Shown one piece after another: positions 14,318 to 49,349 of a stretch of 49,349 nt of DNA. The notes below the pieces were generated by a model. It saw only the letters and a list, made by a program, of their open reading frames with translations. It was not told the origin of the DNA and ran no database searches. A program made the translations under genes and the position numbers. How positions within the stretch are numbered: position 1 is the stretch's first letter; each line of letters starts with the position of its first letter. This DNA is from a virus. Lineage: Duplodnaviria > Heunggongvirae > Uroviricota > Caudoviricetes. The stretch lies in IMG/VR virus record IMGVR_UViG_2529292718_000007; one strand, written 5' to 3'.

Positions 14318-17164
14318 GTGAGTAAATTATTATTTACGATGACTGACGCCGGGCGTAAGGCGCTGGTTAATGCCAACAAGACTGGAACAAATAAAGTTGA
14401 GATCGTTTCTGTTGGTTTAGGTAGTAGATATTATGCCACATCAACCACACAAACAAAAATAACAGATGAAATAAAGCGACTTACCACAATAGGAGGCAAA
14501 GTCGTTTCTCCTGATACCATTCATGTAACTGCGAAGGATGATAGTAAAGATGAGTATGTTGTCCATACAATAGGTTTGTATACAAATAAAGGAACATTGT
14601 TTGCTGTATACTCGCAAGAACAAGTAATAATAAATAAAGCATCTTCTACAATTGCTTTAATATCAAGTGATATAGCAATTAAAAATCTTGATACTAAAAA
14701 CATTACATTTGGTGATGTTGAGTTTATTAACCCTCCCGCAACCGAAACTGTTGTTGGAGTAGCAAGATTTGCTAATGAACAAGAAATTGATGCAGGTACA
14801 GATGATTCCCTGGCTGTTTCAGCAAAGCGGCTTAAGCAAGCTATTGTAAAACATGAGCAATCACGTAATCATCCTGATGCAACTTTAACATCAAAAGGCA
14901 TTGTTCAACTCAGTAATGCCACCAATAGCACGTCTGAAAAGCTCGCAGCGACGCCTAAGGCTGTTAAGGCTGCATATGACCTGGCTGACGGAAAATATAC
15001 CGCCCAGAATGCCACCACGGCACAAAAAGGGATAGTTCAGCTCAGTAGTGCCACTAACAGTACGTCTGAAACGCAGGCGGCAACGCCAAAAGCGGTCAAG
15101 GCAGCAAATGACAACGCAAATTCACGTCTGGCGAAAAATCAGAACGGTGCAGATATCCAGGATAAATCAGCTTTTCTGGACAATGTTGGCGTTACCAGCC
15201 TGACGTTTATGAAAAACAATGGCGAAATGCCGCTTGATGCTGATCTGAATACGTTTGGTCCTGTTAAGGCTTATTCAGGTATCTGGTCTAAAGCAACATC
15301 CACCAACGCAACACTGGAGAAAAATTTCCCGGAAGATAATGCTGTCGGTGTGCTTGAGGTTTTTGCTGCCGGCCATTTTGCAGGTACGCAACGCTTTACC
15401 ACGAGAGACGGCAATGTATACATGCGTAAACTCGCCAATAAGTGGAATGGCACTGATGGTCCGTGGGGCGTATGGCGTCACACTCAATCTGCTACCCGCC
15501 CTTTGAGTACGACTATAGACCTGAATACGCTTGGAGCCGCCGAGCATCTTGGTTTATGGCGTAACAGTAGCTCAGCTATAGCTTCATATGAACGCAATTA
15601 TCCAGAGGAAGGCGGCTTTGCTCAGGGGATGCTTGAGATCCTCGAAGGCGGAAATTATGGAAGAACGCAACGTTATACCACTCGCCGTGGAAATATGTAT
15701 GTCCGCTGTCTTGCGGCAAGCTGGGATGCATCAAATCCGCAGTGGGAACCGTGGTTAAGAGTCGGTCATCAGTCAGAGAGTCGTTATTACGAAGGTGATT
15801 TGAATGATGTAACCTCACCAGGTATTTACAGCGTTACAGGTAAAGCGACCAACGGTCCAGTACTGGACGGAAACGGCGTGACTGTACTCGGCATTCTGGA
15901 AGTGTTGAGGCGGTTTGATGGTGTTAATGTATGGCAGCGTTATACAACTGCCGGAACAGGTACAACCCTTAAAGGCCGCACCTTTGAGCGCGTCTTTACC
16001 GGCAGCTCATGGAGCGAATGGCGGGAAGTCTACACCTCGTATTCACTTCCCCTGAATCTGGGTATCGGCGGTGCTGTGGCAAAGCTCACCAGCCTGGACT
16101 GGCAGACCTACGATTTTGTGCCGGGCAGTCTGATAACCGTTCGGCTTGATAACATGACCAATATTCCCGACGGTATGGACTGGGGCGTCATTGATGGCAA
16201 CCTGATAAACATCTCAGTCGGTCCGAGTGATGATTCTGGTTCGGGACGCTCAATGCATGTATGGCGCAGCACTGTAAGTAAAGCCAACTACCGCTTTTTT
16301 ATGGTTCGCATTTCAGGAAATCCGGGAAGCCGCACGATCACGACAAGACGTGTGCCAATTATCGACGAAGCTCAGACATGGATGGCGAAACAGACATTCA
16401 GCGGTGGTCTTTCAGGCGAACTATCCGGCAATGCTGCTACAGCAACAAAGCTGAAAACGGCAAGGACAATTAACGGCGTAAAATTTGACGGCTCGGCAAA
16501 TATTGAAGCGTTTCCGCCAGGTGTTCCGCTGCCGTGGCCATCAGATACGCCACCTGCAGGTTATGCAATCATGCAGGGGCAGACGTTTGATAAGGCAGCA
16601 TATCCGAAACTGGCTATTGCCTATCCTTCTGGTGTTATTCCAGATATGCGCGGCTGGACAATCAAGGGCAACCCCGCCAGTGGTCGGGCCGTATTGTCTC
16701 AGGAACAGGATGGCATTAAATCGCACACCCACAGTGCCAGCGCATCCAGTACGGATTTGGGTACGAAAACCACATCGTCGTTTGATTACGGTACTAAATC
16801 AACGAATAACACAGGTGCACATACCCACAATGTATCTGGTACTGCAAATAGTGCTGGCGCACATACTCATACCGTTCCATTAAGGAGACCAAACAGTGGC
16901 GGTATGAATTTCGACTGGCTGGATGGTTCATCAAGTGGCACGGTGGTGGGGAATGGAACTGTGCCTTCTTCTGGCGCACATACCCACTCAGTATCAGGTA
17001 CCGCTACAAGTGCTGGGGCACATGCACACACTGTTGGTATTGGCGCTCATACGCACTCTGTTAAGATTGGTTCACATGGACACACCATCACCGTTAACGC
17101 TGCTGGTAACGCGGAAAACACCGTTAAAAACATCGCATTTAATTATATTGTGAGGCTTGCATAA
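14318..17164 (+). CDS. Tail fibre protein
   Basis: 948 aa; tandem fibre repeats (GIVQLSxATNSTSE..[10 protein letters not shown] twice), duplicated central domain, His-rich C-terminal repeats (GAHTHxVSGTA...). Confidence 0.85.
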
Positions 17165-18308: not shown

Positions 18309-18782
18309 AAGATAATCATGTGACCAATTATTGTAATAATTTTAATGGTATGTTTCTACTGGCTATCCAGCGTGTCTGATATCCAGTAACAAATCGTCAA
18401 CACGGGTGCAATCAAATGGTGAGTGTTAAGACTGACCACTTATTACCAGGTATGAGTGGCCAGCATTAAATCAGAACAGCCCTTTAACTGAACTGGCCGC
18501 GCTGTTAAGGGATGATGTCACCTTATCTTTGAAGCCGGACAGCATATTGCTGAACGATGAGTTTACCGCAGGTTTCTGGCTGGGAATCATTGACTGGAGT
18601 TAGGCCAGTAGTATGATGCTCGCAAAACGAGATCCAATTTAGATCCTTTTACTGGTGGATTATCGTTCGATCAGTGAGAGACTTCGTGCATGACCGAAAG
18701 TGTTGTGGTAGAGTTCTCTTAAAACCACGTAACGTGGTTATGATTGTGGGTGTCTGGTTGGAAAGTGACCAGATATGGAAAC

Positions 18783-18895
18783 AAAAAGCCCGCAGATAAA
18801 TCTGCGGGCTTCTTGCGACATCCACGGAAAACCAACAACTAACCATGGGCGCCTCGACAACTCCCATTATACGTTGGTTTTCCGTGGACGCAAGA
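18783..18895 (-). ncRNA. Candidate CopA-like antisense RNA opposite the repA leader
   Basis: Minus-strand hairpin GCCCGCAGA-ttta-TCTGCGGGC followed by TTTTT (about 18782-18810) and a 15 bp stem (CCACGGAAAACCAAC / GTTGGTTTTCCGTGG, 18812-18889) in the repA leader; promoter not located. Confidence 0.4.
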
Positions 18896-18903
18896 GCGAA
18901 CAT

Positions 18904-19752
18904 ATGGATAGACCAATGCCGTCTCTACGTTCAGCTTACGTTTGTAATTTGTCGCCGGAGTTCCAGCCTCCAAAGCACCATACGCACAAGCTGCCGCTGG
19001 TGTTATCTGATGCTTTACAGCGCATTAATGGGCGTGATCTTACGTGTGAGGTTGCGTTCTACGTTAATCAACCGTCAGAGCGGAAGCGCCGGATAAACGA
19101 GCATCGTCGTCGGGCGATTAATGCTGTGATCGCTGCGATTTTGCACCATGTAAACATCATTTCTAAGCGGGTTCTGGCCAGTGCTGAGGCGTTGGCTGAT
19201 TTTTGCGGCCTGTCTACCGTATCCGAAGCTGGGAACAAGTCTATAACGCGCTGTACAAGGGCGTTGTCGCAACTGAAAGCGTTAGGTTTTATTGATTATG
19301 AACGTCGCTGGGATCGGGTGAATAAACAGTATTGGCCAGCGAAAATAGAGATTCGTGATCAACTGCTGGAAACCGTTGGTATTACTGAACAAGCATGGAG
19401 ACGTGCGGTTAGCCAGAAACTTAATTACTTCAATGCGAAGAATAGCGAACGGCTTAAAAAAGCGATAACGGAGGCTGATTATAAGCGTATTGTTATTCAG
19501 GAGCAGATGGAGAATGTATGGCATCAGAGGAAGACGGCCAGAGAGATAAAGGCAAAACAGAAAGCAGCGGAGAGAGCTGCGCGTCTTGTTCGGGAAAAGG
19601 GAGAGGCCGAACTTCGTCATCAAATCACTAGAGAGGTTAGCCAGGAATTTGCTGATGGCATGTATCCTGGAGCTGACCTTGCATATTTACGATCCCTCGT
19701 TGAGCAGCGTTATAACAGGTTAAGAAAGACCTGGAAATCACTCCAACATTAA
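18904..19752 (+). CDS. repA: Plasmid replication initiator RepA (IncFII RepA1 family)
   Basis: Clear RepA1-like motifs (RRRAINAVIAAILHH, CGLSTVSEAGNKSITRCTRALSQLKALGFIDYE); track ORF begins at ATG 18775 but the leader hairpins lie inside that extension; alternative starts 18775/18916. Confidence 0.8.
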   Translation: MDRPMPSLRSAYVCNLSPEFQPPKHHTHKLPLVLSDALQRINGRDLTCEVAFYVNQPSERKRRINEHRRRAINAVIAAILHHVNIISKRVLASAEALADFCGLSTVSEAGNKSITRCTRALSQLKALGFIDYERRWDRVNKQYWPAKIEIRDQLLETVGITEQAWRRAVSQKLNYFNAKNSERLKKAITEADYKRIVIQEQMENVWHQRKTAREIKAKQKAAERAARLVREKGEAELRHQITREVSQEFADGMYPGADLAYLRSLVEQRYNRLRKTWKSLQH

Positions 19753-20250: not shown

Positions 20251-20383
20251 AGTAGCCATCAGAACGCGATAAAACGTAAGAAACATCATTTCCTATTAGA
20301 CATAGAAAACTTGTCTTATACGCAATGTAGTAAATTTCTATTGCCACATAGGAAAAGATTTCCTACCATCGTAGATATAATAA

Positions 20384-20683
20384 ATGGAGATGGTTATGGA
20401 TAAAGATACTGTTTTAAAAATGTTGAATCCGGCTTGTTTAAAAAAAGCGGATGAATGGGAATCTCCTACATGTGGAGAAGTTCGGGCAGTCATTGGCCTC
20501 ACCGGAATGAGTGGCTCGCAGTTGGCCAAAAAACTAGGCTTAAAAGATAGTCGCAATGTTCGCAACTGGCAGATGTTAAAGGAGTCCACATCCAGATCCA
20601 GCATTCCGTATGCAGCCTGGGCGCTGCTGTGTTACTTCGCTGGGTTAGGGTTAATCTTCATTGATAACAAAACAGATGTTTGA
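20384..20683 (+). CDS. HTH-domain protein with C-terminal hydrophobic segment
   Basis: 99 aa; HTH-like GLTGMSGSQLAKKLGL; hydrophobic tail; stop overlaps next ORF. Confidence 0.45.
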   Translation: MEMVMDKDTVLKMLNPACLKKADEWESPTCGEVRAVIGLTGMSGSQLAKKLGLKDSRNVRNWQMLKESTSRSSIPYAAWALLCYFAGLGLIFIDNKTDV

Positions 20684-21904: not shown

Positions 21905-21910
21905 GCTCAT

Positions 21911-22024
21911 AGAATTATATAATTATATATTTATATAAAAAGCGCTTTACAGGTGGGAAAAAATTTCCTATGGTTATACCCGAAACCGAGCGATACCCGC
22001 CCTGGTTAAACCGGAGATAACCCG
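21911..22024 (+). promoter_or_regulatory. Conserved promoter-leader module, copy 1 of 3
   Basis: Near-identical to 30607..30719 and 38793..38906; AT-rich palindromes, then TTTACA (21946-21951), 17 bp spacer containing GGAAAAAATTTCC, TATGGT (21969-21974), then leader with GGAGA SD before ATG 22025. Confidence 0.6.
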
Positions 22025-22405
22025 ATGAGCATGATTAAAATCCGCAAAAACGCTTTCCTTAAAATTCAAACTATCCTGGCTGGTTCTGTTGGCGTGATTT
22101 GCCGTTCTTCTTCAAGCCGCATCGATGACGGCTACGATGATGAGTACCGTGTGTCCTCGTGCGATGAGGCTTTAACCTGGCTGAAGGAGAATCAGGAACG
22201 TGCCCAGGTATATCTGGAAACAGAGAACGGCAATCAGATGCTGCGTATTAGCGGTCGTTATGGATTTGAAACTACATTCATGGCCTATTTTAATCAGGCT
22301 TACTTTGACAAGGAGCTGGCCTGGTACACTGATCGCATGAGCAAAAGCGAGCCAGCCCCGATTACACCGCCGAACAATAAACCATTTTTATTCCTCGTTA
22401 AGTAA
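22025..22405 (+). CDS. Hypothetical protein (first gene of module 1)
   Basis: 126 aa ORF with SD; no family recognised. Confidence 0.5.
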   Translation: MSMIKIRKNAFLKIQTILAGSVGVICRSSSSRIDDGYDDEYRVSSCDEALTWLKENQERAQVYLETENGNQMLRISGRYGFETTFMAYFNQAYFDKELAWYTDRMSKSEPAPITPPNNKPFLFLVK

Positions 22406-23347: not shown

Positions 23348-24490
23348 TTATGGTCTGCTTTTCTGTGCGAGCTTATCAGCACATGTTTTTATCAGCTCCT
23401 GTAGTGTCCTGGCTGGCAGGTTTGCATCCAGTACGCTGAGTATGCTGTTGTGATCTGCCTGGTCGACTACTTTGCCTGTCGGTGGTAATAGCTTGAGCTG
23501 AGGATTCAGGTTTTCGTCAAAGCTGATAAGTGCTCTGGCGTTTCTGAGCAGATCAAGAAGTAAGGCTGATATCACATTTTCCTGAGTCATTGCTGGCAGA
23601 TTTAGCGCCGCTTTGGTTTTCCCTGTTGCCTTGTCAAACTCCTTGATTAGTTCCTTCCTGTAGTTCGGTTCCGTTAATAGCCGATTATGCTCTGTTGCCG
23701 CGCGGATAATCGTTTTTTCCTGGTACAGTCGTTTAGCCAGATCGCGCTCGTACTGTGTTTTTAACACGCTGCTGATAGCGCTAAAGGCTTCAATGTAGGC
23801 CAGCTTGATATCCTTCACGCCTGGACCGTCGATACTTTCCATGAGCAAGGTAAATCCGTCTTTTGTCATGCGATAGATTGTTATTTCGCGGTCGCTTCCT
23901 TCCAACGGTCGTTGCTCTTTAAAGAAATGACGCGCCGCAGCTGTGCGAGGAATGCGTAACGCATCGATGGCCATAACGATGGAATTGTTTGTGGTGCTGA
24001 ATGCTTGGGCAACATCGGCTGAGGTTGTGAGTGGCTCGTTATTGCACACCTTAATGTAAAACATCGGTTTGGCGTTGAGCGTATCGACAACCTCACGAGC
24101 ATTGTTTGGCGAGACGGTTACGGTCGCGGCCGTTTGCGCGTTCTGGTTGAAGTAGCAGTCTTCCAGCCGTTCGAATACATCCCACGCCTGATCGGTTTCG
24201 AGCATTTTAGCGTGACGTGCAGCCCCGCGTTCGGTCCAGAGGATTAGTTTTCTAACGTTATTCGCGATGGTTTGAAAATCTCTTAAAGAGATTTTCAAAC
24301 TTTGGAGATCTGTACCTTTTACAATTATGAAATGTTTTCCTTCTGTAAACCGGGACTTATTACGGTGGTGATTTCTGTGAAGACATTCGACGCTACAGCC
24401 ATATAGTTTGGCAAGCAGCTCCGTGGTGATAACGGGGATCTGGTTATGCAGGATAGGCTGTAGGGTGTTAACGGTCGGAAGAGTTTTCAT
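23348..24490 (-). CDS. ant: Phage antirepressor / Rha-family regulatory protein
   Basis: 380 aa; two Rha/antirepressor-like segments (IPVITTELLAKLYGCSVECLHRN; PLTTSADVAQAFSTTNNSIVMAIDAL). Confidence 0.55.
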   Translation of the reverse strand: MKTLPTVNTLQPILHNQIPVITTELLAKLYGCSVECLHRNHHRNKSRFTEGKHFIIVKGTDLQSLKISLRDFQTIANNVRKLILWTERGAARHAKMLETDQAWDVFERLEDCYFNQNAQTAATVTVSPNNAREVVDTLNAKPMFYIKVCNNEPLTTSADVAQAFSTTNNSIVMAIDALRIPRTAAARHFFKEQRPLEGSDREITIYRMTKDGFTLLMESIDGPGVKDIKLAYIEAFSAISSVLKTQYERDLAKRLYQEKTIIRAATEHNRLLTEPNYRKELIKEFDKATGKTKAALNLPAMTQENVISALLLDLLRNARALISFDENLNPQLKLLPPTGKVVDQADHNSILSVLDANLPARTLQELIKTCADKLAQKSRP

Positions 24491-24678
24491 TTTGCACCTC
24501 CCATAACTACTTTGGTTACGAGGGAGATTTTTGCGTCAGAAACAGCGTTATCGTTGCTGGCGATGCGCATAGCTTCGCGCTCGATTATTTCAGCCAGGCG
24601 GAGTTTATCGGCGTATGAGGCTTTCTTGAGAAGGATCTTTACGAGGTTGACGTAATAGTCATGGGGTAGGTTTGTCAT
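24487..24678 (-). CDS. Small protein co-transcribed with antirepressor
   Basis: Track ORF 24487..24714; internal ATG at 24678 has GGAGA SD; stop overlaps ant start (ATGA). Confidence 0.45.
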   Translation of the reverse strand: MTNLPHDYYVNLVKILLKKASYADKLRLAEIIEREAMRIASNDNAVSDAKISLVTKVVMGGAK

Positions 24679-25431
24679 TGTGATATCTCCAGTATATGGA
24701 ACTATCACCGCCATTCGAGGCTAATCAAATGGTGGTGAGCCGTACAGGGTTAGCCTTACCGGACACAATGACGAACCGGCGCGGATTTCTCCGCCCCTGT
24801 ACGACCCACCATAATTTGGGCGTAACAGTGCTCTACGCATAAAAAAACCGCTAACGCGGTATGCGCCATCGTGTTATTCAGGAGGCTAATCCCGGCCGTA
24901 GATTTTGCTACGGCTCGGAAAGTGTCCACCAATGGCGCATTTATGTCAATACGGCGGGGTTTTAACAGAGACAACCACATAGCGTGGGTTTATTGGTAGG
25001 CAGAAACAAAAAAACCGCCCTATTGAGGACGGTTCTTTCGTGCTGATCGGATTCGCGGTCCTTTCAGCATTACGTTGTTGTATAAACAACCACGCAAGCA
25101 CAAGCAGCAAGTTAATTTTACCCAAAAGGTAATAATAGTCCACTATTATGCTTCAAAAAATTGTGGTTCTTGTTGTGCCTGCAAACTCACAGATTGTGGG
25201 TAGGTTACTGATTTTGTGAAAATAAACGAGTTTTTTCGTTTAATTTCTTTCCTATTACTAATCTTAAAATAATCGTAAAATACCTGTGGACCTTCCCGCC
25301 GATTCGCACCCGGGCACCGACTTTAGGGGAGGATTCTCCGTTGCCGTACATGCAAGCACAAGCAGCCGTGCTTGCTCTCGCGTTGTTTTCGTCGGTGGGG
25401 ATGCCGTGAAACGGCCTGTAAGGGCCATACA

Positions 25432-25554
25432 ATGAAAAAATACTGTATGTGTATTTTTATCGTTGTTACTGGGGCTTTGTTTACGCCACATGGGGAGGGT
25501 TGGAAGATTACTGATAACGCTCTGAATGTGACGATAAACATTAGCAGCAAGTAG
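25432..25554 (+). CDS. Small hydrophobic peptide (40 aa)
   Basis: MKKYCMCIFIVVTGALFTPHGEGWKITDNALNVTINISSK; followed by strong terminator. Confidence 0.3.
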   Translation: MKKYCMCIFIVVTGALFTPHGEGWKITDNALNVTINISSK

Positions 25555-25559
25555 CGATT

Positions 25560-25583
25560 AGGCCCCTTCGGGGGCCTTTTTTT
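25560..25583 (+). terminator. Rho-independent terminator
   Basis: AGGCCCCttcgGGGGCCT followed by TTTTTTT. Confidence 0.7.
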
Positions 25584-25805: not shown

Positions 25806-26054
25806 TTACTTCTGGTTGTATTGAGCCTTGAGTAACTCAAAAGACTTTGTCAGCACTTCTTTCAATGACATATCCATTGAGCTGGCGAACGTTTTGTACT
25901 CGCGTTTAAATTCAGGGTCGACGTTAAACGCCATTTGTGCCCCACCTGATTTGGTTCTGGTTGGCGTTTCAGTCGGGTCGAAAACCTGCGGTTGTTCGAT
26001 CGATGGCGGTACGCCTTTGCTGTTCTTCTTTGGTGGTTTTGATGGTGCGGCCAT
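25806..26054 (-). CDS. ParG-like ribbon-helix-helix centromere-binding protein
   Basis: 82 aa; disordered basic N-terminus then RHH-like FNVDPEFKREYKTFASSMDMSLKEVLTKSFELLK; downstream of parA. Confidence 0.7.
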   Translation of the reverse strand: MAAPSKPPKKNSKGVPPSIEQPQVFDPTETPTRTKSGGAQMAFNVDPEFKREYKTFASSMDMSLKEVLTKSFELLKAQYNQK

Positions 26055-26097
26055 GTGTATCCCCTCTTATATAAATCTATAAAACTATAATTATATA

Positions 26098-26751
26098 TTA
26101 TGCGGCAGTAGTCAGAGCCTCAAGCTGGTTGATAATCCCCTGAATAACGTCGTCTGCCTTTTTGCGTGGCGCAACGTATGAGCACTCAATGAGGCTTAAG
26201 CCCTTATCCTGAGCTTTGCTCAGAGCTGGCTTGTGGGGAATGTACTTATCGACAACAAAGTATGGCGTATTAGCCAGGTACTCTTGGGCTTCAATATAGT
26301 CAGCTTCGTTTTCAGCCGCGCCGGAAAACACCATGCAAATTTTCTTGATTGGTACACCCTTTTTAACGATGCCGTGAGCAGTGTTAACGGTGGTTTCCAG
26401 GTCATCGGTAGAGAATCGGGTTGGCAAAATAACCATATCCAGAAATTCAGATAGCTTCGGTACTGATTCAGATGCGTAGGCACCGCCATCGACGATAACC
26501 AGGTCGTATACTTCTGATTCGATGATTTTCTGGACTTGTGATGGTGTGCCGCACGGCTGCGCCGCGATTGCTGGTTCGATATTGTTGGCCATTCTGCGTT
26601 GTACCCAACGCGTTACCGTTCCGTTAAGCACATCCATATCGATCAGGCATACATTCCAGCCAGCCTTTGCATAAGCAACTGCTAAAGCACGGGCAATTGT
26701 TGATTTGGTTACGCCGCCTTTTCCGTTGAAAATACCTACAGAGATAGTCAT
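26098..26751 (-). CDS. parA: Partition ATPase ParA (small type Ib)
   Basis: Deviant Walker A GIFNGKGGVTKST; track start 26766, ATG 26751 has GGAG SD. Confidence 0.8.
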   Translation of the reverse strand: MTISVGIFNGKGGVTKSTIARALAVAYAKAGWNVCLIDMDVLNGTVTRWVQRRMANNIEPAIAAQPCGTPSQVQKIIESEVYDLVIVDGGAYASESVPKLSEFLDMVILPTRFSTDDLETTVNTAHGIVKKGVPIKKICMVFSGAAENEADYIEAQEYLANTPYFVVDKYIPHKPALSKAQDKGLSLIECSYVAPRKKADDVIQGIINQLEALTTAA

Positions 26752-26775
26752 TTGTCGAGACTCCATGTGTTTGGT

Positions 26776-26879
26776 TATATAATTCTATAAATCTATATTT
26801 ATAGAACGAGGTAAGCATAACCAACTTTTTGGCTGATGAAAAGCGTTTTATATAATTATATAAATCTATAATCATATAA
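26776..26879. promoter_or_regulatory. par operon promoter/operator (possible centromere) with two AT-rich palindrome clusters
   Basis: TATATAATTCTATAAATCTATATTTATAG (about 26776-26805) and TATATAATTATATAAATCTATAATCATATAA (about 26847-26879) upstream of parA; a third cluster at 26067-26100 between parA and parG-like gene. Confidence 0.5.
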
Positions 26880-27368: not shown

Positions 27369-28025
27369 TCATAACCAGTTGACAACACTAACTACGCGGC
27401 CAAGAACTTTATAACGCTTAAATTCCTCGTTATTCAGATGCTTAGTGTTCATTTCAGCATCCCTTTCGGTTGACAGCATAACAGCATTGTCACCCGGTAT
27501 GACTCTACAGTGCCTCAAAACAACCAGGCCATTTCTGTCTTCAAGGGCATAGATCCCCTCATGAATCTCTGTATCGTCTGTATTAATCAGGACTTGGGAG
27601 CCTGGGGATATTGTTGGTGACATTAACTCATCGTTGCTCTGGAGAACTGACAGAGACGATGGGTTGATGTTCTTGCTTCGTAGAATCTCCTGTTCTATCG
27701 CCAGCACTGGCTTTTCTCCGGCGTGCGATGCTATGTCATTTTTTATAGCTACAAGCCCAGGAATAACAGGAGCGTTAGTATTCTGGGGTGGGAACGGGTT
27801 ATCTGTTAAGCACGCGATATAAGGCGCTGATGCTTTCAGGGCGTGCGCGATTTTCTTGATGGCAGGTATAGATGGTTGTCTTAATCCGGCCTCATAGTTC
27901 TGCAAGGTGCTTAAGCCTATTCCAGTGACTTGCTGGAGATCTCCGGCAGTCATGCCGGATTGTTTCCGTAGAGTCTGAATGCGCAGACCTATTTCTTTCT
28001 TGATGTTCTCGTCGTTGCTTTTCAT
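27369..28025 (-). CDS. cI: CI-like repressor (N-terminal XRE HTH, C-terminal S24 LexA-like domain)
   Basis: 218 aa; HTH GLRIQTLRKQSGMTAGDLQQVTGIGLSTLQNYEAG; C-terminal S24-like fold (MSPTISPGSQVLIN...); divergent from Cro-like gene. Confidence 0.75.
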   Translation of the reverse strand: MKSNDENIKKEIGLRIQTLRKQSGMTAGDLQQVTGIGLSTLQNYEAGLRQPSIPAIKKIAHALKASAPYIACLTDNPFPPQNTNAPVIPGLVAIKNDIASHAGEKPVLAIEQEILRSKNINPSSLSVLQSNDELMSPTISPGSQVLINTDDTEIHEGIYALEDRNGLVVLRHCRVIPGDNAVMLSTERDAEMNTKHLNNEEFKRYKVLGRVVSVVNWL

Positions 28026-30550: not shown

Positions 30551-30606
30551 AAGTGTCATTTTGAGCTGTTTTGATGGTGTGTAGACATCGGGAACATCGA
30601 AAATCT

Positions 30607-30719
30607 ATAAATATATAATTATAGATTTATATAAAAAGTGCTTTACAGGTGGGAAAAAATTTCCTATGGTTATACCCGAAACCGAGCGATACCCGCCCTG
30701 GTTAAACCGGAGAAATCTG
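30607..30719 (+). promoter_or_regulatory. Conserved promoter-leader module, copy 2 of 3
   Basis: TTTACA at 30642-30647; about 95 bp nearly identical to copies 1 and 3 (one substitution before the last 10 nt of the leader); ends at ATG 30720. Confidence 0.6.
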
Positions 30720-31787
30720 ATGAATAAACAAGTAATTATTTCTGACTGGATCAACAACCCTAACAGCCTGTTAAGCACTGATACTGGCTACCTATTACGC
30801 CATGTTAATGGTCGTATGGTCAAAAGCGATGAGCACGAAACCTTTTTCTTTGTTGAAGACGATGGGCGTATCTATGAGGATGGTTACTCTTATGAAGCCC
30901 AAACTGGTTGTATCCCTGCGGAGCTGGTGGACGTAACAGAAGATCTGCGCAAAGCATGGCTTGAACAGCAGCAGCGCGGAGATGATTACGTAAACACCTA
31001 TCAGGAACGCCAGAACGCGCGTCTTGCCCGATATATTGCTCGTGCAGAAAAAGCCAGAAAAGAAGGTGCGGTAGCGCATAAGCGAGCGCATGACCTGTTG
31101 GATGTGATCCCGTTAGGCCAGCCGATTTTAGTTGACCATTATAGCGCGAAAGGCCATCGCCGCCGTTTGTCTAAAGCTGATGCGTTATTCAGAAAAGCGT
31201 TTGTTGAATGCGAAAGTAAAGCATCACACTACGAGAGCAAAGCCGCAGGTGTTGGTCGTAATGGAATTTCGTCTGATGATCCTGATGCGCTATTTAAGTT
31301 GCTTCGTAAGCTGCAAGGCTGCATGAAGTCACACGTCAAAATGAAGGCCGCAAATAAGGCCATTCGCAAATACAAAAAAGACCAAATACAGCAGCTTTCT
31401 GCATTAATCGATCTCAGGTTTACAGAAAGCGAAGCCAAAGAGTTACTGGCCGGAGATTTCTGTGGGCACATCGGATTCCCTTCATACGCACTGAGCAACA
31501 ATAACGCCGAAATCAAACGACTACAGAGCCGTATTAAGGAGCTTGAATCGGTCAAGTCTGTAACAGGAGCACAGCGCGAAGAATACGACGGCTTTTCTAT
31601 GGAGATAGATCCAGAGGATAACCGCATCCTGTTTTATTTCCCTGGCAAACCAGAGGCAAACATTCGTTCGCTGCTTAAATCACGCGCCTTTAAGTGGAGT
31701 CCAACCCGTAATGCATGGGTTCGCAAGATTACTCCAAACGCCCTGGCTGATGCCCGATATCTAAAAGAATCGCTATTGAAAGCCTGA
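30720..31787 (+). CDS. DUF3560-like protein
   Basis: 355 aa from ATG 30720 (track ORF 30666 begins inside the conserved leader); QPILVDHYSAKGHRRR and C-terminal FKWSPTRNAWVRK pattern. Confidence 0.5.
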   Translation: MNKQVIISDWINNPNSLLSTDTGYLLRHVNGRMVKSDEHETFFFVEDDGRIYEDGYSYEAQTGCIPAELVDVTEDLRKAWLEQQQRGDDYVNTYQERQNARLARYIARAEKARKEGAVAHKRAHDLLDVIPLGQPILVDHYSAKGHRRRLSKADALFRKAFVECESKASHYESKAAGVGRNGISSDDPDALFKLLRKLQGCMKSHVKMKAANKAIRKYKKDQIQQLSALIDLRFTESEAKELLAGDFCGHIGFPSYALSNNNAEIKRLQSRIKELESVKSVTGAQREEYDGFSMEIDPEDNRILFYFPGKPEANIRSLLKSRAFKWSPTRNAWVRKITPNALADARYLKESLLKA

Positions 31788-31864
31788 CAGTAAGCCTACG
31801 GCGGGACGTCTCCCGCCGTATATAGAATTATATATTTATACAAATGTATAAGGACGCCTCGACA

Positions 31865-32146
31865 ATGAAACGCAAAATTATTAACCCCCAAGATGTGATT
31901 AATTTCCTGACCGATCACCCATGTTCAAAAGTGGACGTAATCGCGGAGCACATTGGTGTGTCGCAGAACTCTATGCGTTGCAGACTGAGAAGCATGGTTG
32001 CCGAAGGACAGATAACAACCAGGAAAATAAATGGTTGCCTGTACTACTCCGCTAAACCGGAATTGCCATTTGGCATGAATCCTAACTCCATGTTGTTTAA
32101 CACCTTATTAGCCAAAGTTAAGCCGTTGAGAGGGGCTGTGGCATGA
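31865..32146 (+). CDS. Putative winged-helix DNA-binding protein
   Basis: Track ORF 31844..32146; ATG 31865 has AAGGA SD; helix-rich small protein; preceded by AT-rich palindrome cluster. Confidence 0.4.
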   Translation: MKRKIINPQDVINFLTDHPCSKVDVIAEHIGVSQNSMRCRLRSMVAEGQITTRKINGCLYYSAKPELPFGMNPNSMLFNTLLAKVKPLRGAVA

Positions 32147-35858: not shown

Positions 35859-36002
35859 GTATTGTTTTTTTATTGATCGATCAACCACATTTTGAAGGTT
35901 TTTTTATGAAGAAACCTTGTTTTAGGTGGTAACTGGGTGTAGTGTTTCATTTAACGTAGTAAAACTGCGTTAAGCGATTACCGCGTAATTTGTTGCTTTA
36001 TG

Positions 36003-36032
36003 AAGCCCTGCCTTTTCGGCGGGGCTTTTTTT
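36003..36032 (+). terminator. Strong rho-independent terminator immediately upstream of the lysis cassette
   Basis: AGCCCTGCCttttcGGCGGGGCT followed by T8. Confidence 0.75.
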
Positions 36033-36046
36033 TAACGAGGATTTCA

Positions 36047-37529: not shown

Positions 37530-37653
37530 TACCGCCTGTGATTGGGTAAAGCCCATCTACCTGACTGATCACGATATCGATGTTATGGACCGCCAGACAA
37601 AGAAAGATATTCTGGCTCATAACAGGGCATGGGAAATCAACTGCCCCAAGTAA
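37444..37653 (+). CDS. Outer-membrane spanin lipoprotein (Rz1-like), overlapped frame
   Basis: 69 aa in alternative frame overlapping the i-spanin 3' end; signal-like N-terminus with lipobox LIASC. Confidence 0.5.
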   Translation: MYSRVLTIWLMTMLIASCGSRGSVPVVVDTACDWVKPIYLTDHDIDVMDRQTKKDILAHNRAWEINCPK

Positions 37654-37822
37654 TATATATTTCTATAATTATATAAATATATAGTTACAACATTCTATGC
37701 GCTTTTCTCATGGGCGCACGCATCAACCATGTTTGTCTGATATGCCGCCGCGCCCAAAAATCCTGAATTTATTGGCTGGGATTTTCGTGCGCGGCGCCAC
37801 ACCAGACAAACAGATCAAATAT

Positions 37823-37898
37823 GGCCCCTTAGCTCAGTGGTTAGAGCAGGCGACTCATAATCGCACGGTCATCGGTTCAAATCCGGTAGGGGCCACCA
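37823..37898 (+). tRNA. tRNA with CAU anticodon (Met or lysidine-type Ile2)
   Basis: 76 nt cloverleaf: acceptor GGCCCCT/AGGGGCC, D-stem GCTC/GAGC, anticodon loop CTCATAA, T-arm ATCGG-TTCAAAT-CCGGT, 3' ACCA. Confidence 0.85.
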
Positions 37899-38206: not shown

Positions 38207-38794
38207 ATGGAGGCAATTGCATTGTTTAATCTGATTTATGCAGATCCCCCCTGGGAATACAAAGATAAGTGTAAGGATGGGAATCGTGGAGCTGGTTTTA
38301 AGTATCCAACGATGAAAGCTGAGGATATTGCTCGTATTCCTGTCTTGCAGCTTGCTAATCCTGAATCGTGTTTGTTGGCCATGTGGTGGGTTCCGACTCA
38401 GCCAGAAGAAGCGTTGCTGGTGGTGAAAGCATGGGGATTCAGGCTTATGACCATGAAGGGCTTCACATGGAACAAATGTGGTAGCCGACAACCAGATAAG
38501 CTGGTGATGGGGATGGGGCATATGACTCGTGCAAACAGTGAAGATTGCTTGTTTGCGGTAAAAGGCAAATTGCCGACCCGCCTTGATGCGGGGATCATTC
38601 AGTCGTTTACATCGCCTCGTCTGGAGCATTCTCGGAAGCCTGATGTGGTTCGTGACAAGCTGGTAAGGCTGTTAGGTGATGTTCCTCGTATTGAGCTGTT
38701 TGCTCGCGGTGATTTACCTGATGGTTGGCATGGCTGGGGCAACCAGTGCAATGGAGGTATCCAGTTGCATGATGCTCTCTGGCAAGTGGTATAG
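38207..38794 (+). CDS. DNA N6-adenine methyltransferase (MT-A70 family)
   Basis: 195 aa; hallmark DPPW motif (LIYADPPWEY). Confidence 0.8.
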   Translation: MEAIALFNLIYADPPWEYKDKCKDGNRGAGFKYPTMKAEDIARIPVLQLANPESCLLAMWWVPTQPEEALLVVKAWGFRLMTMKGFTWNKCGSRQPDKLVMGMGHMTRANSEDCLFAVKGKLPTRLDAGIIQSFTSPRLEHSRKPDVVRDKLVRLLGDVPRIELFARGDLPDGWHGWGNQCNGGIQLHDALWQVV

Positions 38795-38906
38795 AATTAT
38801 ATAATTATAGATTTATATAAAAAGTGCTTTACAGGTGGGAAAAAATTTCCTATGGTTATACCCGAAACCGAGCGATACCCGCCCTGGTTAAACCGGAGAT
38901 AACCCG
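38793..38906 (+). promoter_or_regulatory. Conserved promoter-leader module, copy 3 of 3
   Basis: TTTACA at 38828-38833; identical leader and SD before ATG 38907. Confidence 0.6.
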
Positions 38907-39176
38907 ATGAAAGTACAAGACCGTGAAGTAGTAAAAAACCTCCTGCAATACCTGACCTCAAAAAACCTGACTGGCAGCGTTGAGTTCCGTGAAGCGTTAA
39001 AACATTTCAACGTCACTACGGTTTATCGTTGGGAAAACAAACATTCTGAAAGACCGTATGTGGTGGATGTTTTTGCGCCTGATATTGAGTGCGGTTTTGA
39101 GCGTCATTCGTTCAAGGAGAAACATTCTGCTGATTTTTTTTGTGAGGTTGTATGTGCGGCAGGAGATGATGAGTGA
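38907..39176 (+). CDS. Hypothetical protein (first gene of module 3)
   Basis: 89 aa ORF with SD. Confidence 0.5.
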   Translation: MKVQDREVVKNLLQYLTSKNLTGSVEFREALKHFNVTTVYRWENKHSERPYVVDVFAPDIECGFERHSFKEKHSADFFCEVVCAAGDDE

Positions 39177-39373
39177 TGCGTATTTCCTTCAAACGTGCGA
39201 CTGAGCAGCAACGCAAAGAGTTCCTGGCTGATGATGTAGCGGCCGTTTATGACCTCATGAAAGAGGTTGTGGAATCAGGGAACTACACGGCGGCAAAGAT
39301 GCTTAAACTGCAATTCTTGCTGGGCGACCTGAAATACAAATCCGAAGTTGTCGCCGGACGACGCGAGCATTAA
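39173..39373 (+). CDS. Hypothetical protein
   Basis: 66 aa; ATGA overlap. Confidence 0.45.
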   Translation: MMRISFKRATEQQRKEFLADDVAAVYDLMKEVVESGNYTAAKMLKLQFLLGDLKYKSEVVAGRREH

Positions 39374-39396
39374 ACCGTAACGATAACGAACAACGA

Positions 39397-39422
39397 GCCT
39401 CGGCAATTGCCGGGGCTTTTTT
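39397..39422 (+). terminator. Rho-independent terminator
   Basis: GCCTCGGCAattGCCGGGGC followed by TTTTTT. Confidence 0.65.
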
Positions 39423-40955: not shown

Positions 40956-41579
40956 ATGACAAAACATCTTAATGTGGTTTCTTTACCACTTTCTGTGTTG
41001 ATTGGTTATGAAAAGAACGCTCGCACACACTCCGTGGAGCAGGTAGATCAGATTGTTGCCAGCATACAGGAGTACGGATGGACTAATCCGATCCTGATAG
41101 ACGAGAACAACGTTGTAATTGCTGGTCATGGTCGAATTGCTGCGGCCACTCAGTTGGGGATGGATGACGTTCCCTGCATTGTTCTGGAAGGGCTAACGGA
41201 GAATCAGAAGAAGGCATATCGTCTGGCCGACAACCGTATTCCGCTGAATGCTGGTTGGGATGAAGAGCTGTTAAGCGCGGAGCTTGCAGATCTTGCGGCC
41301 GATGATTTTGCTCTGGACTCAATTGGTTTTACTCAGCGCGAACTGGATAACTTATTGAGTGCGGCGGTCTACGATGACACAGAGGGTATGGATATCCCAT
41401 TTGAGAAGGATGAGGCCAAATCAGGCGTAAAAGTTCAGTACCTGTCATTTGGAGGTCATAAAATCCCGGCAACGGATGAGGAAGCGGATCGTTTTGACTG
41501 CGCGGTGTCTCGTTATGTTGATGATAATGGCAGCTATATCGGATTTGTATCCGCATTGCTGGCTGGGGAGGGGTGCTGA
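40956..41579 (+). CDS. ParB-like nuclease domain protein
   Basis: 207 aa; N-terminus parallels 44245..44835 (KNARTHSVEQVDQIVASIQEYGWTNPILIDENNVVIAGHGRIAAA). Confidence 0.7.
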   Translation: MTKHLNVVSLPLSVLIGYEKNARTHSVEQVDQIVASIQEYGWTNPILIDENNVVIAGHGRIAAATQLGMDDVPCIVLEGLTENQKKAYRLADNRIPLNAGWDEELLSAELADLAADDFALDSIGFTQRELDNLLSAAVYDDTEGMDIPFEKDEAKSGVKVQYLSFGGHKIPATDEEADRFDCAVSRYVDDNGSYIGFVSALLAGEGC

Positions 41580-44244: not shown

Positions 44245-44835
44245 ATGGCTCTAAAAATCGAATATTTACCAGTCGGTAAGTTGCTCAGATATGCCAAAAA
44301 TTCACGGACTCATTCAGATGAGCAAGTTGAACAGTTGGTGAACAGTATCCGTGAGTTCGGTTTCACTAATCCTGTGCTGATCGATGAAAAGAATGAACTG
44401 ATTGCGGGGCATGGGCGGCTTGCAGCAGCCGAAATTCTGGAAATGGATAAAGTTCCGGCGATTCGGTTGAGTAACCTTTCTGAAAAACAGAAGAAGGCTT
44501 ACAGGATTGCAGATAACAAGCTGGCCTTAAATGCTGGCTGGGATATGCAGCTTCTGGCCGAAGAAGTCAAAGAGTTAATGGATGATGATTTTGATATTGA
44601 TCTGCTTGGGTTTAATGATGCAGAGCTTGACGAAATGTTAAGCGATGAACAGCCGCAGGAAGAAGACGATAATTCTTCCCCTGTTGTTCAAATTAAGTAC
44701 CTGGCTATTGATAAAGAACGTATTCCCGCGACGGATATGGAAATTGCATTGTTGCTGGATGTTTATCGTCAGTACCACGACGCGCATGAAACGCATGAGG
44801 GATTTGTTCAGTATCTTGCTAATGGTTGCAAGTAA
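44245..44835 (+). CDS. ParB-like nuclease domain protein, immediately upstream of terminase genes
   Basis: 196 aa; N-terminal ParB/Srx-type motifs (KNSRTHSDEQVEQL, LIAGHGRLAAA); paralog of 40956..41579; stop overlaps terS start. Confidence 0.7.
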   Translation: MALKIEYLPVGKLLRYAKNSRTHSDEQVEQLVNSIREFGFTNPVLIDEKNELIAGHGRLAAAEILEMDKVPAIRLSNLSEKQKKAYRIADNKLALNAGWDMQLLAEEVKELMDDDFDIDLLGFNDAELDEMLSDEQPQEEDDNSSPVVQIKYLAIDKERIPATDMEIALLLDVYRQYHDAHETHEGFVQYLANGCK

Positions 44836-49070: not shown

Positions 49071-49349
49071 TTGGTGGGAAATAAAAAATAGCACGGGTGA
49101 AGATGACTCTCCGGCTGAGCTTTTAATTTACGGGTATATTGGTGAATTTGATGAGGTTTCTTCTTCTGACATAGTTAATAAATTAAAGGATATTTCATCA
49201 AATACTATCAACGTAAAAATTAATAGTTATGGTGGTTCTGTTTTTACTGCTCAAGCTATTCTTTCATCATTAAAGCGTCATAAGGCGAATATTACGGTTT
49301 ATATCGACGGGATTGCTGCATCGGCTGCAACTATTATTGCAATGGCGGG

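Follow-up and report, generated by a model that had tools for sequence, protein, structure and literature searches.

Three Copies of One Module on a Phage-Plasmid

The window, that is, the whole stretch of DNA analysed here (49,349 nucleotides), is a complete, circularly permuted phage-plasmid, on which a repeat-family search placed three copies of one module:

21909-22028, plus strand: module copy 1
30605-30724, plus strand: module copy 2 (89% over 120 nt, ungapped)
38791-38910, plus strand: module copy 3 (98%)

The ungapped identity of copy 2 is just 89% because a 1-nt deletion lies near its start codon. The copies are direct repeats, with start-to-start distances of 8696 and 8186 nt, and the genes that flank them are unrelated to one another. 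In a MAFFT alignment they are invariant in nearly all columns from the AT-rich block to the ATG, the similarity ending within a few bases on each side, and over the core running from AAAAAG to GGAGA the three pairs of copies match at 80/81, 80/81 and 81/81 positions. A threefold repeat of this kind is far beyond chance. The original prediction, made from the letters alone, had described three near-identical modules at these places; both the repeat search and the multiple alignment bear this out, the similarity being no lower than had been claimed, and TTTACA, a 17-nt spacer with GGAAAAAATTTCC, TATGGT and GGAGA are all present as described there. Each module consists, in order, of an array of four 8-bp AT-rich units, a -35 element, a 17-bp dyad within the spacer, a -10 element, a 5' hairpin, GGAGA and the ATG.

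The units that the modules are predicted to drive comprise the following features:

22013-22017, plus strand: Shine-Dalgarno sequence (SD) GGAGA of module 1
22025-22405, plus strand: 126-aa gene (phrog_8090), ATG at 22025, apparently a single-gene unit
30709..31787, plus strand: SD of module 2 and 355-aa DUF3560 gene, ATG at 30720
about 31799-31818, plus strand: GC hairpin, then an AT array, after the DUF3560 gene
38895..39418, plus strand: module 3 unit (SD, two genes and hairpin)
38907-39176, plus strand: 89-aa gene
39173-39373, plus strand: 66-aa gene
39395-39418, plus strand: terminator-like hairpin after the 89-/66-aa pair

Terminator-like hairpins are found upstream of module 1 and downstream of the module 3 unit. 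The driven genes are neither structural nor lysis genes, and homologues of the 126-aa protein are confined to this plasmid family and one Vibrio plasmid.

A Predicted KorC-Type Operator in the Promoter Spacer

The core of each module could be read as a promoter whose spacer is filled by a dyad, and a fourth such site lies in front of a gene for a small helix-turn-helix (HTH) protein:

21946..21974, plus strand: module 1 core promoter (-35 TTTACA, 21946-21951; 17-nt spacer; -10 TATGGT, 21969-21974)
21954-21970, plus strand: module 1 predicted operator TGGGAAAAAATTTCCTA, filling the spacer, its final TA opening the -10
30642..30670, plus strand: module 2 core promoter (-35, 30642-47; operator, 30650-30666; -10, 30665-70)
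38828..38856, plus strand: module 3 core promoter (-35, 38828-33; operator, 38836-38852; -10, 38851-56)
20341..20369, plus strand: promoter of the repressor gene (-35 TTGCCA, 17-nt spacer, -10 TACCAT)
20349-20365, plus strand: operator TAGGAAAAGATTTCCTA, the best operator copy, in the spacer of the repressor promoter, 30 nt upstream of the gene
20396-20683, plus strand: gene for a KorC-family HTH protein (95 aa) that is proposed to repress its own promoter as well as the three modules

The 17-bp dyad of the modules reads TGGGAAA-AAA-TTTCCTA, with GGAAAAAATTTCC as its core. The pattern ATAGGAAA-N3-TTTCCTAT occurs four times in the window, where 0.44 occurrences would be expected, and the four dyads are those of the three modules and of the promoter spacer of the 95-aa HTH gene. 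In the E. coli-type copies, the module half-site reads TGGG against the consensus TAGG, leaving six of the seven dyad pairs, while the first half-site is TAGG in the Salmonella-type copies. When 24 cassettes were aligned (alignment A3; 70% mean column identity), the dyad proved to be 97.6% complementary, with changes on both sides at 3/7 positions (GGAAA/TTTCC, GGACT/AGTCC and GGGCA/TGCCC).

The nature of the protein encoded next to the fourth dyad provides the link to plasmid biology. It shows 51% identity with KorC of R772 across 80 residues (E 4e-23), its tblastn matches are annotated korC, and a 52% homologue occupies the korC position in the order klcA-klcB-korC-kleE-korA-incC-korB of IncP-1 plasmids. 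Neither Pfam nor NCBIfam has a model that names this protein or the 82-aa protein described below. The operator in the repressor promoter is conserved across four lineages, and its dyad has been retained in the Salmonella, Citrobacter and Enterobacter relatives in spite of divergence in the flanks.

The resemblance extends to the whole cassette. R772, pEST4011, a Methylomonas plasmid, pKUN4843_2, an mcr-1 IncP plasmid and a further plasmid (L047) share one layout, namely a -35 element, TAGGnnn-N3-nnnCCTA with its last TA opening the -10, a hairpin, ACCGGAGA and the ATG. From the operator start to the ATG, these IncP-1-type plasmids span 72-77 nt and the window copies 73-74 nt; the register of TGGGAAAAAATTTCCTA to the -10 is the same as in all six, which carry one to three such cassettes in the stretches read. 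Judged by sequence, therefore, homology to the IncP-1 klcA/kleA promoter cassettes runs through the modules column by column, and the 17-bp dyad of the modules is best described as a KorC-type operator rather than a mere feature of the spacer. The promoter-plus-leader reading of the original prediction is supported and sharpened by this homology to KorC-repressed cassettes. The module promoter shows 9/12 consensus matches, which are no commoner in the region than in shuffles; promoter activity, the transcription start and repression are predicted from homology. Control of the modules by CI was considered and rejected: the modules contain no operator of the ACCAC...GTGGT type that lies between cI (27369-28025) and the rightward operon.

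Two other readings of the dyad can be weighed at this point. According to the first, the modules would be unregulated "moron" promoters, recently duplicated, with the dyad lying in the spacer by accident, as might be suggested by short units bounded by terminator-like hairpins and by copies that are almost identical. This is very unlikely, considering that the symmetry of the dyad is kept through changes in both half-sites in three lineages, that the dyad recurs at the promoter of the KorC homologue in every lineage examined and that the arrangement is old enough to be common to IncP-1 plasmids. The second would have the dyad bind an activator, the modules being late or induced promoters in lytic growth; repeated phage promoter modules are, indeed, often activator-dependent late promoters. 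However, the good -35 element and the 17-nt spacing mean that no activator would be needed, and the site occupies the spacer, which is where repressors typically bind. The cognate protein, moreover, comes from a family characterised as repressors, and none of the driven genes is a structural or lysis gene, so that an activator appears quite improbable.

A Covarying Hairpin in the Leader

The short leader of each module carries a hairpin:

21984..22007, plus strand: hairpin in the module 1 leader (AACC.GAGCG-loop-CGC..GGUU), 3-5 nt away from where transcription is predicted to start
30680..30703, plus strand: module 2 leader hairpin
38866..38889, plus strand: module 3 leader hairpin

Pairing of the hairpin reaches 89.6% in the 24-cassette alignment, and five of its eight pairs show compensatory changes; none of 500 shuffles reached the observed score, slid controls were at most 44% paired, and RNAalifold independently predicts the same structure. 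Taken alone, it is weak (-9.6 kcal/mol, z from -1.1 to -1.8). The three ACCCG repeats that the original prediction had noticed in the leader are not conserved in relatives, where the hairpin is conserved instead; as protein sites, these direct repeats were likewise discarded, since they are not kept in the Salmonella copies.

The covariation of the hairpin across IncP-1 and phage-plasmid cassettes, together with a conserved distance between hairpin and SD, raises the alternative that the leader is a cis-acting regulatory RNA (acting by antitermination, attenuation or translational control) and that this is the main cause of the conservation. We consider this unlikely. An Rfam cmscan of positions 18000-45000 (E <= 1) gave no match in any module; the hairpin has 7-8 pairs, lacks a U-tract and leaves the SD unsequestered; and no partner complementary to the leader over at least 12 nt was found elsewhere in the genome. 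Moreover, the driven units contain just one or two genes, so there is little for processive antitermination to act on.

It had also been suggested that the leader encodes a conserved 16-codon upstream ORF (MVIPETERYPPWLNRR) starting within TATGGT; such an ORF would be translated and control the downstream gene. Window copies 1 and 3 do have an ATG followed by a stop in the same frame. Nevertheless, the ATG has become AAG in two of the three copies of the Yersinia phage vB_YpM_39, a 1-nt insertion after codon 2 leads to an unrelated peptide in the Salmonella and Citrobacter relatives, and in window copy 2 the frame runs into the downstream gene. The ORF lacks a Shine-Dalgarno sequence and is absent from the IncP-1 and clade-B cassettes, and its ATG lies inside the -10 element and hence upstream of the expected transcription start. 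The notion of a translated upstream ORF is thus barely tenable.

AT-Rich Arrays and the Partition Locus

The AT-rich block at the head of the modules is found at other sites in the window as well:

21908..21939, plus strand: module 1 array of four 8-bp units (CATAGAAT, TATATAAT, TATATATT and TATATAAA), ending 6 bp upstream of the -35
30602..30635, plus strand: module 2 array of 8-bp units
38790..38821, plus strand: module 3 array of 8-bp units, the first of which contains the TAG stop of an MT-A70 methyltransferase gene
26847..26878, minus strand: array upstream of the putative par promoter
26842-26837 (-35 TTTTCA) and 26819-26814 (-10 TATGCT), minus strand: putative par promoter
26774..26807, minus strand: array between the putative par promoter and parA
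26098-26751, minus strand: ParA-type ATPase
26066..26099, minus strand: array between the parA stop and the 82-aa gene
25806-26054, minus strand: 82-aa protein whose N-terminal tail is basic and disordered and whose C-terminal part has two helices
31819..31850, plus strand: array without module, 13 nt upstream of the MarR-like gene
31844..32146 as listed, plus strand: MarR-like winged-helix gene, with an ATG at 31865
37652..37685, plus strand: array without module, upstream of an ORF at 37697 and a tRNA (37823-37895)

The consensus TATAKAWT has 47 matches in the window against 3.1 expected, and there are eight arrays of four phased 8-bp units, three in the modules and five at sites without the promoter-leader. 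Consequently, the "AT-rich palindrome cluster" of the original prediction is AT-rich as stated, while what had been taken for palindromes is a phased array of four TATAKAWT units. The same distribution (par locus, modules and one or two other sites) is observed in the Salmonella, Citrobacter, Enterobacter and clade-B relatives.

The arrays occur three times within the par locus and are, therefore, probably sites for a second regulator. In the modules they occupy the place beside the -35 where IncP-1 cassettes carry the KorA operator. That operator (GTTTAGCTAAAC) is absent from the window, with two 2-mismatch matches elsewhere against 2.3 expected, and no korA gene was found in the window. Most likely, the arrays, which take the place of the KorA operator, are binding sites of a second regulator, and the ParA-adjacent 82-aa protein is the first candidate to bind them. 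Its AlphaFold model is of low confidence (pLDDT 64) and shows helices at 47-58 and 62-80 and no strand; with this model as query, Foldseek gave no match in the PDB beyond noise, and a PDB sequence search gave no match either. For ParA, no close solved relative was found.

A different emphasis would make the arrays dispersed partition (centromere) sites for the 82-aa protein, so that the modules serve mainly in segregation and control of the promoter is secondary. Three of the eight arrays lie inside the par locus, with the same layout in relatives, three are too near a start codon to be upstream promoter elements, and a basic disordered tail followed by two helices is the layout of small type Ib centromere-binding proteins. 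On the other hand, the 82-aa protein has no fold or family match, the MarR-like gene that immediately follows one array encodes a candidate binder of equal standing, AT-rich DNA may act as an UP element or as a site for host nucleoid proteins, and the homologous IncP-1 cassettes are devoid of arrays. A mainly segregational role is, in our opinion, a real possibility that falls somewhat short of being probable. It would be compatible with the KorC-repressed cassettes that we favour.

Distribution and Concerted Evolution of the Modules

The module is present in about three copies per record in ~65 related E. coli/Salmonella plasmids of 44-52 kb (190 places). Among 5426 complete E. coli genomes, 74 contain it, at a median of three places, and 214 of the 217 places are on plasmids. 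Three Yersinia myophages also have about three copies each. In a more distant clade (clade B), where the homologue of the 126-aa protein is 47% identical, the entire module exists in a version particular to that clade; there are 2-4 copies, and one of them drives the operon to which the korC-like gene belongs. Scanning genome contigs with the 126-aa family revealed no wider relatives, and a metagenome scan returned the same two clades only. The phage-plasmid pSLy3 was considered as the group and set aside, as it belongs to the roughly 100-kb SSU5 supergroup.

Paralogous modules match at 78-82 of 81-82 positions, while orthologous modules of E. coli-type and Salmonella-type match at 73-75 of 82, and seven differences are fixed in all paralogues of each of these two lineages. 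This pattern indicates that the paralogues evolve in concert, apparently being kept identical by gene conversion. In the distant clade, an indel of ~900 bp between two records (L015 and L016) is bounded by modules. The proposal that the copies could serve as recombination points or cassette boundaries hence receives indirect support, from concerted evolution, the module-bounded indel and the 2-4 copies of the distant clade.

The repressor gene and its operator, the wider distribution of the arrays and the link to IncP-1 had not been seen in the original prediction.

A Working Model

All these observations could be integrated by assuming that the modules are self-contained expression cassettes of the IncP-1 "kil-kor" type, repressed by a KorC-like protein and resident on a phage-plasmid, an interpretation that we regard as likely. 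In this model, each cassette would consist of a sigma-70 promoter, whose spacer is filled by an operator for the KorC-family repressor encoded at 20396-20683, and a short leader with the conserved 5' hairpin, which probably stabilises the transcript, followed by a strong ribosome-binding site. The three cassettes would drive unrelated units, namely the 126-aa gene, the DUF3560 gene and the 89-aa plus 66-aa pair. When the DNA enters a repressor-free cell, all three units would fire; as the KorC-like protein builds up, it would sit between the -35 and the -10 and shut down the modules and its own promoter to a low level. This low-level state would correspond to the plasmid-prophage, with a behaviour presumably like that measured for the KorC/KorA-repressed klcA on RP4. 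The AT array would be an element in its own right, which also occurs at the par operon and at two other sites, and the copies of the module may act as recombination points where small gene cassettes come and go. An "entry burst" as the purpose of the driven genes is proposed by analogy.

A broader and more speculative idea, which we hold to be possible but doubtful, is that the cassette is a portable "entry-burst" unit, common to conjugative plasmids and tailed phage-plasmids and spreading by recombination, and that the partition protein is also a global co-repressor. If so, the driven proteins (126 aa, DUF3560, 89 and 66 aa), as well as the 86-, 61- and 103-aa proteins driven in clade B, would act in establishment or anti-defence and be produced solely during the first minutes following entry of the DNA, and the dispersed 8-bp arrays would replace KorA and its operator O_A, with the partition protein as co-repressor.

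The analysis would connect the classical kil-kor circuitry of IncP-1 plasmids with the regulation of a temperate phage-plasmid family that is common among clinical E. coli and Salmonella isolates and can infect Yersinia pestis. It suggests that whole promoter-operator-leader cassettes, and not genes alone, are exchanged between conjugative plasmids and phages, points to a covarying 5' hairpin common to the IncP-1-type and phage-plasmid cassettes read here, and narrows down to a few genes the candidates for functions needed just after DNA entry.

Comparison with Known Systems

Mobile promoter cassettes flanking small accessory genes are known in T4-type phages as PeSLs, and morons are units made of promoter, gene and terminator. 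The modules resemble both in being repeated at accessory genes, in the gain and loss of genes and in the promoter-gene-terminator layout, but they have no sequence relationship to them and contain an operator for a dedicated repressor. In phage anti-CRISPR systems repressed by Aca proteins, small accessory genes are expressed on entry before an autorepressor, bound to an inverted repeat inside a strong early promoter, silences them. The analogy here would lie in a small HTH autorepressor, an inverted repeat inside the promoter and early accessory genes; the likeness of the 95-aa protein to AcrIF24 (E 1.4e-5) and Aca3 (E 0.016) is limited to the HTH region.

In type Ib par systems, arrays of repeats act as both operators and centromeres, and the phage-plasmid N15 has dispersed sopC-like centromeres. 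Like the systems of TP228 (ParG/parH) and pSM19035 (omega), the window has phased short repeats around an operon for a small ParA, repeats at other promoters of the replicon and a small candidate protein with a flexible basic tail beside parA. However, TATAKAWT is unlike the ParG or omega repeats, and no ribbon-helix-helix fold could be recognised in the low-confidence model (pLDDT 64) of the 82-aa protein.

As regards control by KorC, the regulatory layout is like that of the IncU plasmid RA3, where several promoters scattered over one replicon are jointly controlled by a small KorC repressor. RA3 KorC is a global repressor of five promoters, and the korC promoter of RA3 was reported to be weak and constitutive (PMC7414963), while the repressor promoter described here carries an operator.

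The closest counterparts are the kilC and kilE promoters (klcA, kleA and kleC) of the IncP-1 plasmids RK2/RP4, R751 and R772. The title of Thomas et al. (1988), as cited in PMC7314908, reports three RK2 operons repressed by KorA and KorC; on RP4, klcA is the gene most strongly induced on entering a new cell, and its low basal level was attributed to KorA and KorC (PMC7314908). The two sets share a homologous repressor (51% identity), the placement of the 17-bp dyad, the leader hairpin, the ACCGGAGA ribosome-binding site, the overall length and a homologous -35 region (GTGCTTGACA against GTGCTTTACA). In both, the replicon has several near-identical copies, each at the head of a short unit, and an O_C promoter also serves the repressor gene itself. 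In contrast, the host replicon is a tailed phage-plasmid and not a conjugative plasmid, the inner operator bases are GGAAA instead of GGGCA, klcA and kleA have no relatives among the driven genes, and in place of a KorA operator there is a 4 x 8-bp AT array beside the -35. Co-repression by KorA is a feature of the IncP-1 version and not of KorC control as such. A literature search for KorC together with phage-plasmids returned nothing relevant.

Genome and relatives

A repeat search showed that positions 1-1002 of the window are identical to positions 48348-49349 over 1002 bases, and the window therefore represents a single complete genome, circularly permuted and 48,347 bp long. Its genes specify a lambda-like head, a contractile tail, lysis functions, a CI-like repressor (27369-28025) and a HigB/HigA pair, together with replication and partition functions:

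18775-19752, IncFII-type RepA
26098-26751, minus strand, small ParA, followed by the gene of an 82-aa protein

Three Yersinia pestis myophages (vB_YpM_39, vB_YpM_41 and vB_YpM_44) are close relatives, as are about 65 non-mobilizable plasmids, 44-52 kb in size, that come from E. coli, E. albertii, E. fergusonii, Salmonella and Klebsiella. The genome is a phage-plasmid.

Several further features were recorded. A P1-type immunity region on the minus strand (23348-24930) contains a C4 antisense RNA (24728-24816, 70.8 bits), a match to the c4 target, an isrK-like RNA (24841-24914) and an ORF6N/Rha antirepressor gene (23348-24490), and it accompanies the separate CI-like repressor. Between this antirepressor region and the par locus, the ryfA RNA family gave a full-length match on the plus strand (25286-25582, 141.8 bits, E 1e-36). 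Genes for three proteins with a ParB N-terminal domain (40956-42952 and 44245-44835) lie upstream of the terminase genes, and in one of these proteins (41573-42952) the domain is joined to a methyltransferase domain. Repeats inside genes, noted at 9254-9535 and 16814-17035, are three in-frame repeats with 120-nt spacing in the tape-measure gene and in-frame, histidine-rich GAHTH-type repeats in the tail-fibre gene. A sub-threshold GcvB-like match (35877-36033; 33.7 bits versus a gathering score of 42) lies between the Ead/Ea22-like region and the lysis genes, closed by a strong terminator (36002-36028).

Three copies of a promoter-leader module

The modules are placed as follows, with spacings of 8696 and 8186 bp:

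21909-22028, module copy 1
30605-30724, module copy 2
38791-38910, module copy 3

The original prediction described three near-identical promoter-leader modules between unrelated genes, and alignment bore this out: almost all columns are invariant from the AT-rich block to the ATG, the pairwise matches over an 81-nt core are 80/81, 80/81 and 81/81, and the similarity stops sharply on both sides. The upstream neighbours are HigA with a terminator, a 125-aa gene and an MT-A70 methylase, and the downstream ones a 126-aa gene, a DUF3560 gene and an 89-aa gene. A search of related genomes, which had been suggested, revealed three copies in the same three places in nearly all relatives (190 places in 65 plasmids, with a median of 3 per genome). 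Each module begins with four phased 8-bp AT-rich units (TATAKAWT), followed by AAAAAGYGC, a -35 element TTTACA, a 17-nt spacer, a -10 element TATGGT, about 10 nt, a small hairpin, AAACC, GGAGA, and 7-8 nt leading to the ATG.

The promoter-leader and recombination readings of that prediction were supported; two of its elements were not. A 16-codon upstream ORF, offered as an alternative, failed every comparative test: two of the vB_YpM_39 copies have AAG in place of its ATG, the copies from Salmonella and Citrobacter encode an altered peptide owing to a 1-nt insertion, the ORF continues into the gene in copy 2 of the window, and it is missing from the cassettes of IncP-1 plasmids and of a distant phage-plasmid clade. 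Likewise, the three ACCCG repeats are not conserved in relatives. No Rfam family matches the modules, and the window genome contains no antisense partner of the leader of 12 nt or more. Control of the modules by CI was rejected, the CI operators being of a different type.

A KorC-type operator in the promoter spacer

The key to interpreting the module is that two of its parts, the AT array and the spacer palindrome, recur elsewhere in the genome. The extended palindrome, ATAGGAAA-N3-TTTCCTAT, has 4 matches in the window versus 0.44 expected. The fourth copy (20348-20366) coincides with the 17-nt spacer in a promoter-like site, TTGCCA-17-TACCAT; some 30 nt further downstream begins the gene of a 95-aa protein with a helix-turn-helix (HTH) motif. 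A 52%-identical homolog of this protein is encoded on IncP-1 plasmids between klcB and kleE/korA/incC/korB, which is the position of korC, and its identity to the annotated KorC of R772 is 51% (E 4e-23). About 50 bp upstream of this repressor gene's promoter, an imperfect inverted repeat, TTTCCTAT-tagac-ATAGAAAA (20288-20308), presents the KorC-type half-site in the arrangement opposite to that of the operator.

The IncP-1 klcA and kleA promoter regions align with the window module and share its construction (R772 kleA, AAAGTGCTTGACAggcTAGGGCATTTTGCCCTAATATagcacttgaaGGCCGGGCAcattGCCCAGGTCaactACCGGAGAaagtCCGATG; window, AAAGTGCTTTACAggTGGGAAAAAATTTCCTATGGTtatacccgaaACCGAGCGataccCGCCCTGGTTaaACCGGAGAtaaCCCGATG). 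All aligned cassettes contain a 17-bp dyad, TAGGnnn-N3-nnnCCTA, whose final TA is the start of the -10 element; the distance from dyad start to ATG is 72-77 nt in the IncP-1 cassettes versus 73-74 nt in the window, and 1-3 such cassettes were found per IncP-1-type plasmid in the stretches examined. The module is therefore, as judged from sequence, a member of the KorC-operator promoter family.

Covariation of operator and leader hairpin

Both elements were evaluated in an alignment of 24 cassettes, of which six IncP-1-type plasmids supplied 13, phage-plasmids of E. coli, Yersinia, Salmonella and Citrobacter type 6, and the distant clade 5. In the operator dyad, 97.6% of cells are complementary, and two-sided, symmetry-keeping changes occur at 3 of 7 positions (GGAAA/TTTCC, GGACT/AGTCC, GGGCA/TGCCC, GGCCA/TGGCC), as a dimeric DNA-binding protein would select for.

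In the leader hairpin (columns 33-36 with 53-56 and 38-41 with 47-50), 89.6% of cells are paired and compensatory changes affect 5 of 8 pairs, for instance GGCC:GGCC versus AACC:GGUU in the outer stem. None of 500 shuffles reached the observed pairing or covariation score, shifting the partner by 1-3 columns lowered pairing to 44% or less, and RNAalifold predicted the same hairpin unprompted. Folded alone, the hairpin is weak (-9.6 kcal/mol, z about -1.1 to -1.8), and the support for it is comparative. It starts 10-12 nt past the -10 element, and thus a few nucleotides from the expected 5' end. Stem-loops near the 5' end shield E. coli mRNAs from 5'-end-dependent decay, and the hairpin may be such a 5' protector of the transcript.

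Evidence for recombination between module copies

In viral and metagenomic contigs of the distant clade, where the homolog of the 126-aa protein shares just 47% identity, the whole module is present in a distinct version: AT array, TTGCGC, TAGGACT-AAA-AGTCCTA, TATTAT, the hairpin GGCCGGAC...GTCAAGGCC, GAGGAGA and ATG. Two, three or four copies occur within about 2.5 kb and precede different small genes (a 103-aa gene followed by the korC-like gene, then 86-aa, 96-98-aa and 61-aa genes). Two of these contigs, L015 and L016, differ by an indel of about 900 bp, comprising one gene and one module, with both junctions inside modules. In Salmonella-type plasmids, 7 substitutions or indels are common to all three paralogues, as against all nine E. 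coli/Yersinia-type copies, and within the window's clade paralogues match at 78-82 of 81-82 positions versus 73-75 of 82 for orthologues. These lineage-specific changes and the module-bounded indel indicate that the copies are homogenised within a genome and act as recombination points, in line with the earlier suggestion that they could mediate recombination.

AT arrays and the partition locus

The AT array occurs without the promoter-leader at five further sites, giving eight arrays in total (47 pattern matches versus 3.1 expected). The par locus accounts for three of these: the first lies upstream of a promoter-like site, the second separates this site from parA, and the third falls in the gap from parA to the 82-aa gene. 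Of the other two, one precedes a MarR-like gene and one a tRNA-containing region. Three of the eight are too near a start codon to act as an upstream promoter element, and the distribution is the same in all relatives examined. The arrays are an element separate from the promoter-operator-leader.

The 82-aa protein is predicted, in a low-confidence model, to have an N-terminal half that is basic and disordered, with two helices at the C-terminal end, a layout known from the small centromere-binding/repressor proteins of type Ib partition systems; fold and family searches with it gave no match. On that footing, our best guess is that the arrays are sites of this ParA-adjacent protein, with a role in partition as a centromere, in regulation as an operator, or in both. 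Another candidate binder is the MarR-like protein, whose gene directly follows one array.

The putative par promoter (TTTTCA-17-TATGCT, 26814-26842, minus strand) resembles the module promoter in layout, with an AT array and then AAAACGC; its spacer palindrome, CCAA-AAAG-TTGG, is not a KorC-type dyad. An array and the next ~15 nt to the ATG are common to the window (31819-31866, GACGCCTCGACAATG) and L016 (16469-16526, GAGACCTCGACAATG), before a MarR-like 100-aa gene in the former and a 133-aa gene in the latter, and may constitute a second kind of portable 5' cassette. A tRNA gene (37823-37895, 67 bits) downstream of an array is annotated as tRNA-Met in vB_YpM_39 and as tRNA-Ile in pECO-b75. 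In the Enterobacter-type relatives L050 (4142-4260) and L051 (4215-4333), an array lies about 85 bp ahead of an 86-aa HTH gene (L050 4259-4519) and is followed by a different promoter region lacking a KorC-type dyad, and the korC-like gene retains its own operator.

Proposed working and comparison with known systems

The genome thus contains three homologous promoter-operator-leader cassettes and a KorC-family gene whose promoter carries that operator as well. The operator evolves preserving symmetry and the hairpin preserving pairs, and the driven units are short (module 1 is preceded, and the 89/66-aa pair followed, by a terminator-like hairpin, and a GC hairpin lies 3' of the DUF3560 gene). 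In the proposed model, the cassettes would fire on entry into a repressor-free cell; the KorC-like protein would then build up and occupy the spacer of all four promoters, leading to low expression in the plasmid-prophage.

In RK2, three operons are reported to be under repression by KorA and KorC, going by the title of a 1988 paper by Thomas et al. that PMC7314908 cites. IncP-1 cassettes carry a KorA operator, GTTTAGCTAAAC, beside the -35 element, whereas the window modules have the AT array there and this operator is absent from the window. A literature search on KorC together with phage-plasmids found nothing relevant. KorC/O_C promoter cassettes are a known kind; those of the window belong to a tailed phage-plasmid and have an AT-repeat array where the KorA operator would be. 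AcrIF24 and Aca3 have HTH motifs similar to that of the 95-aa protein, and they act as repressors of strong early promoters that drive small accessory genes; the same logic would apply to the cassettes described here.
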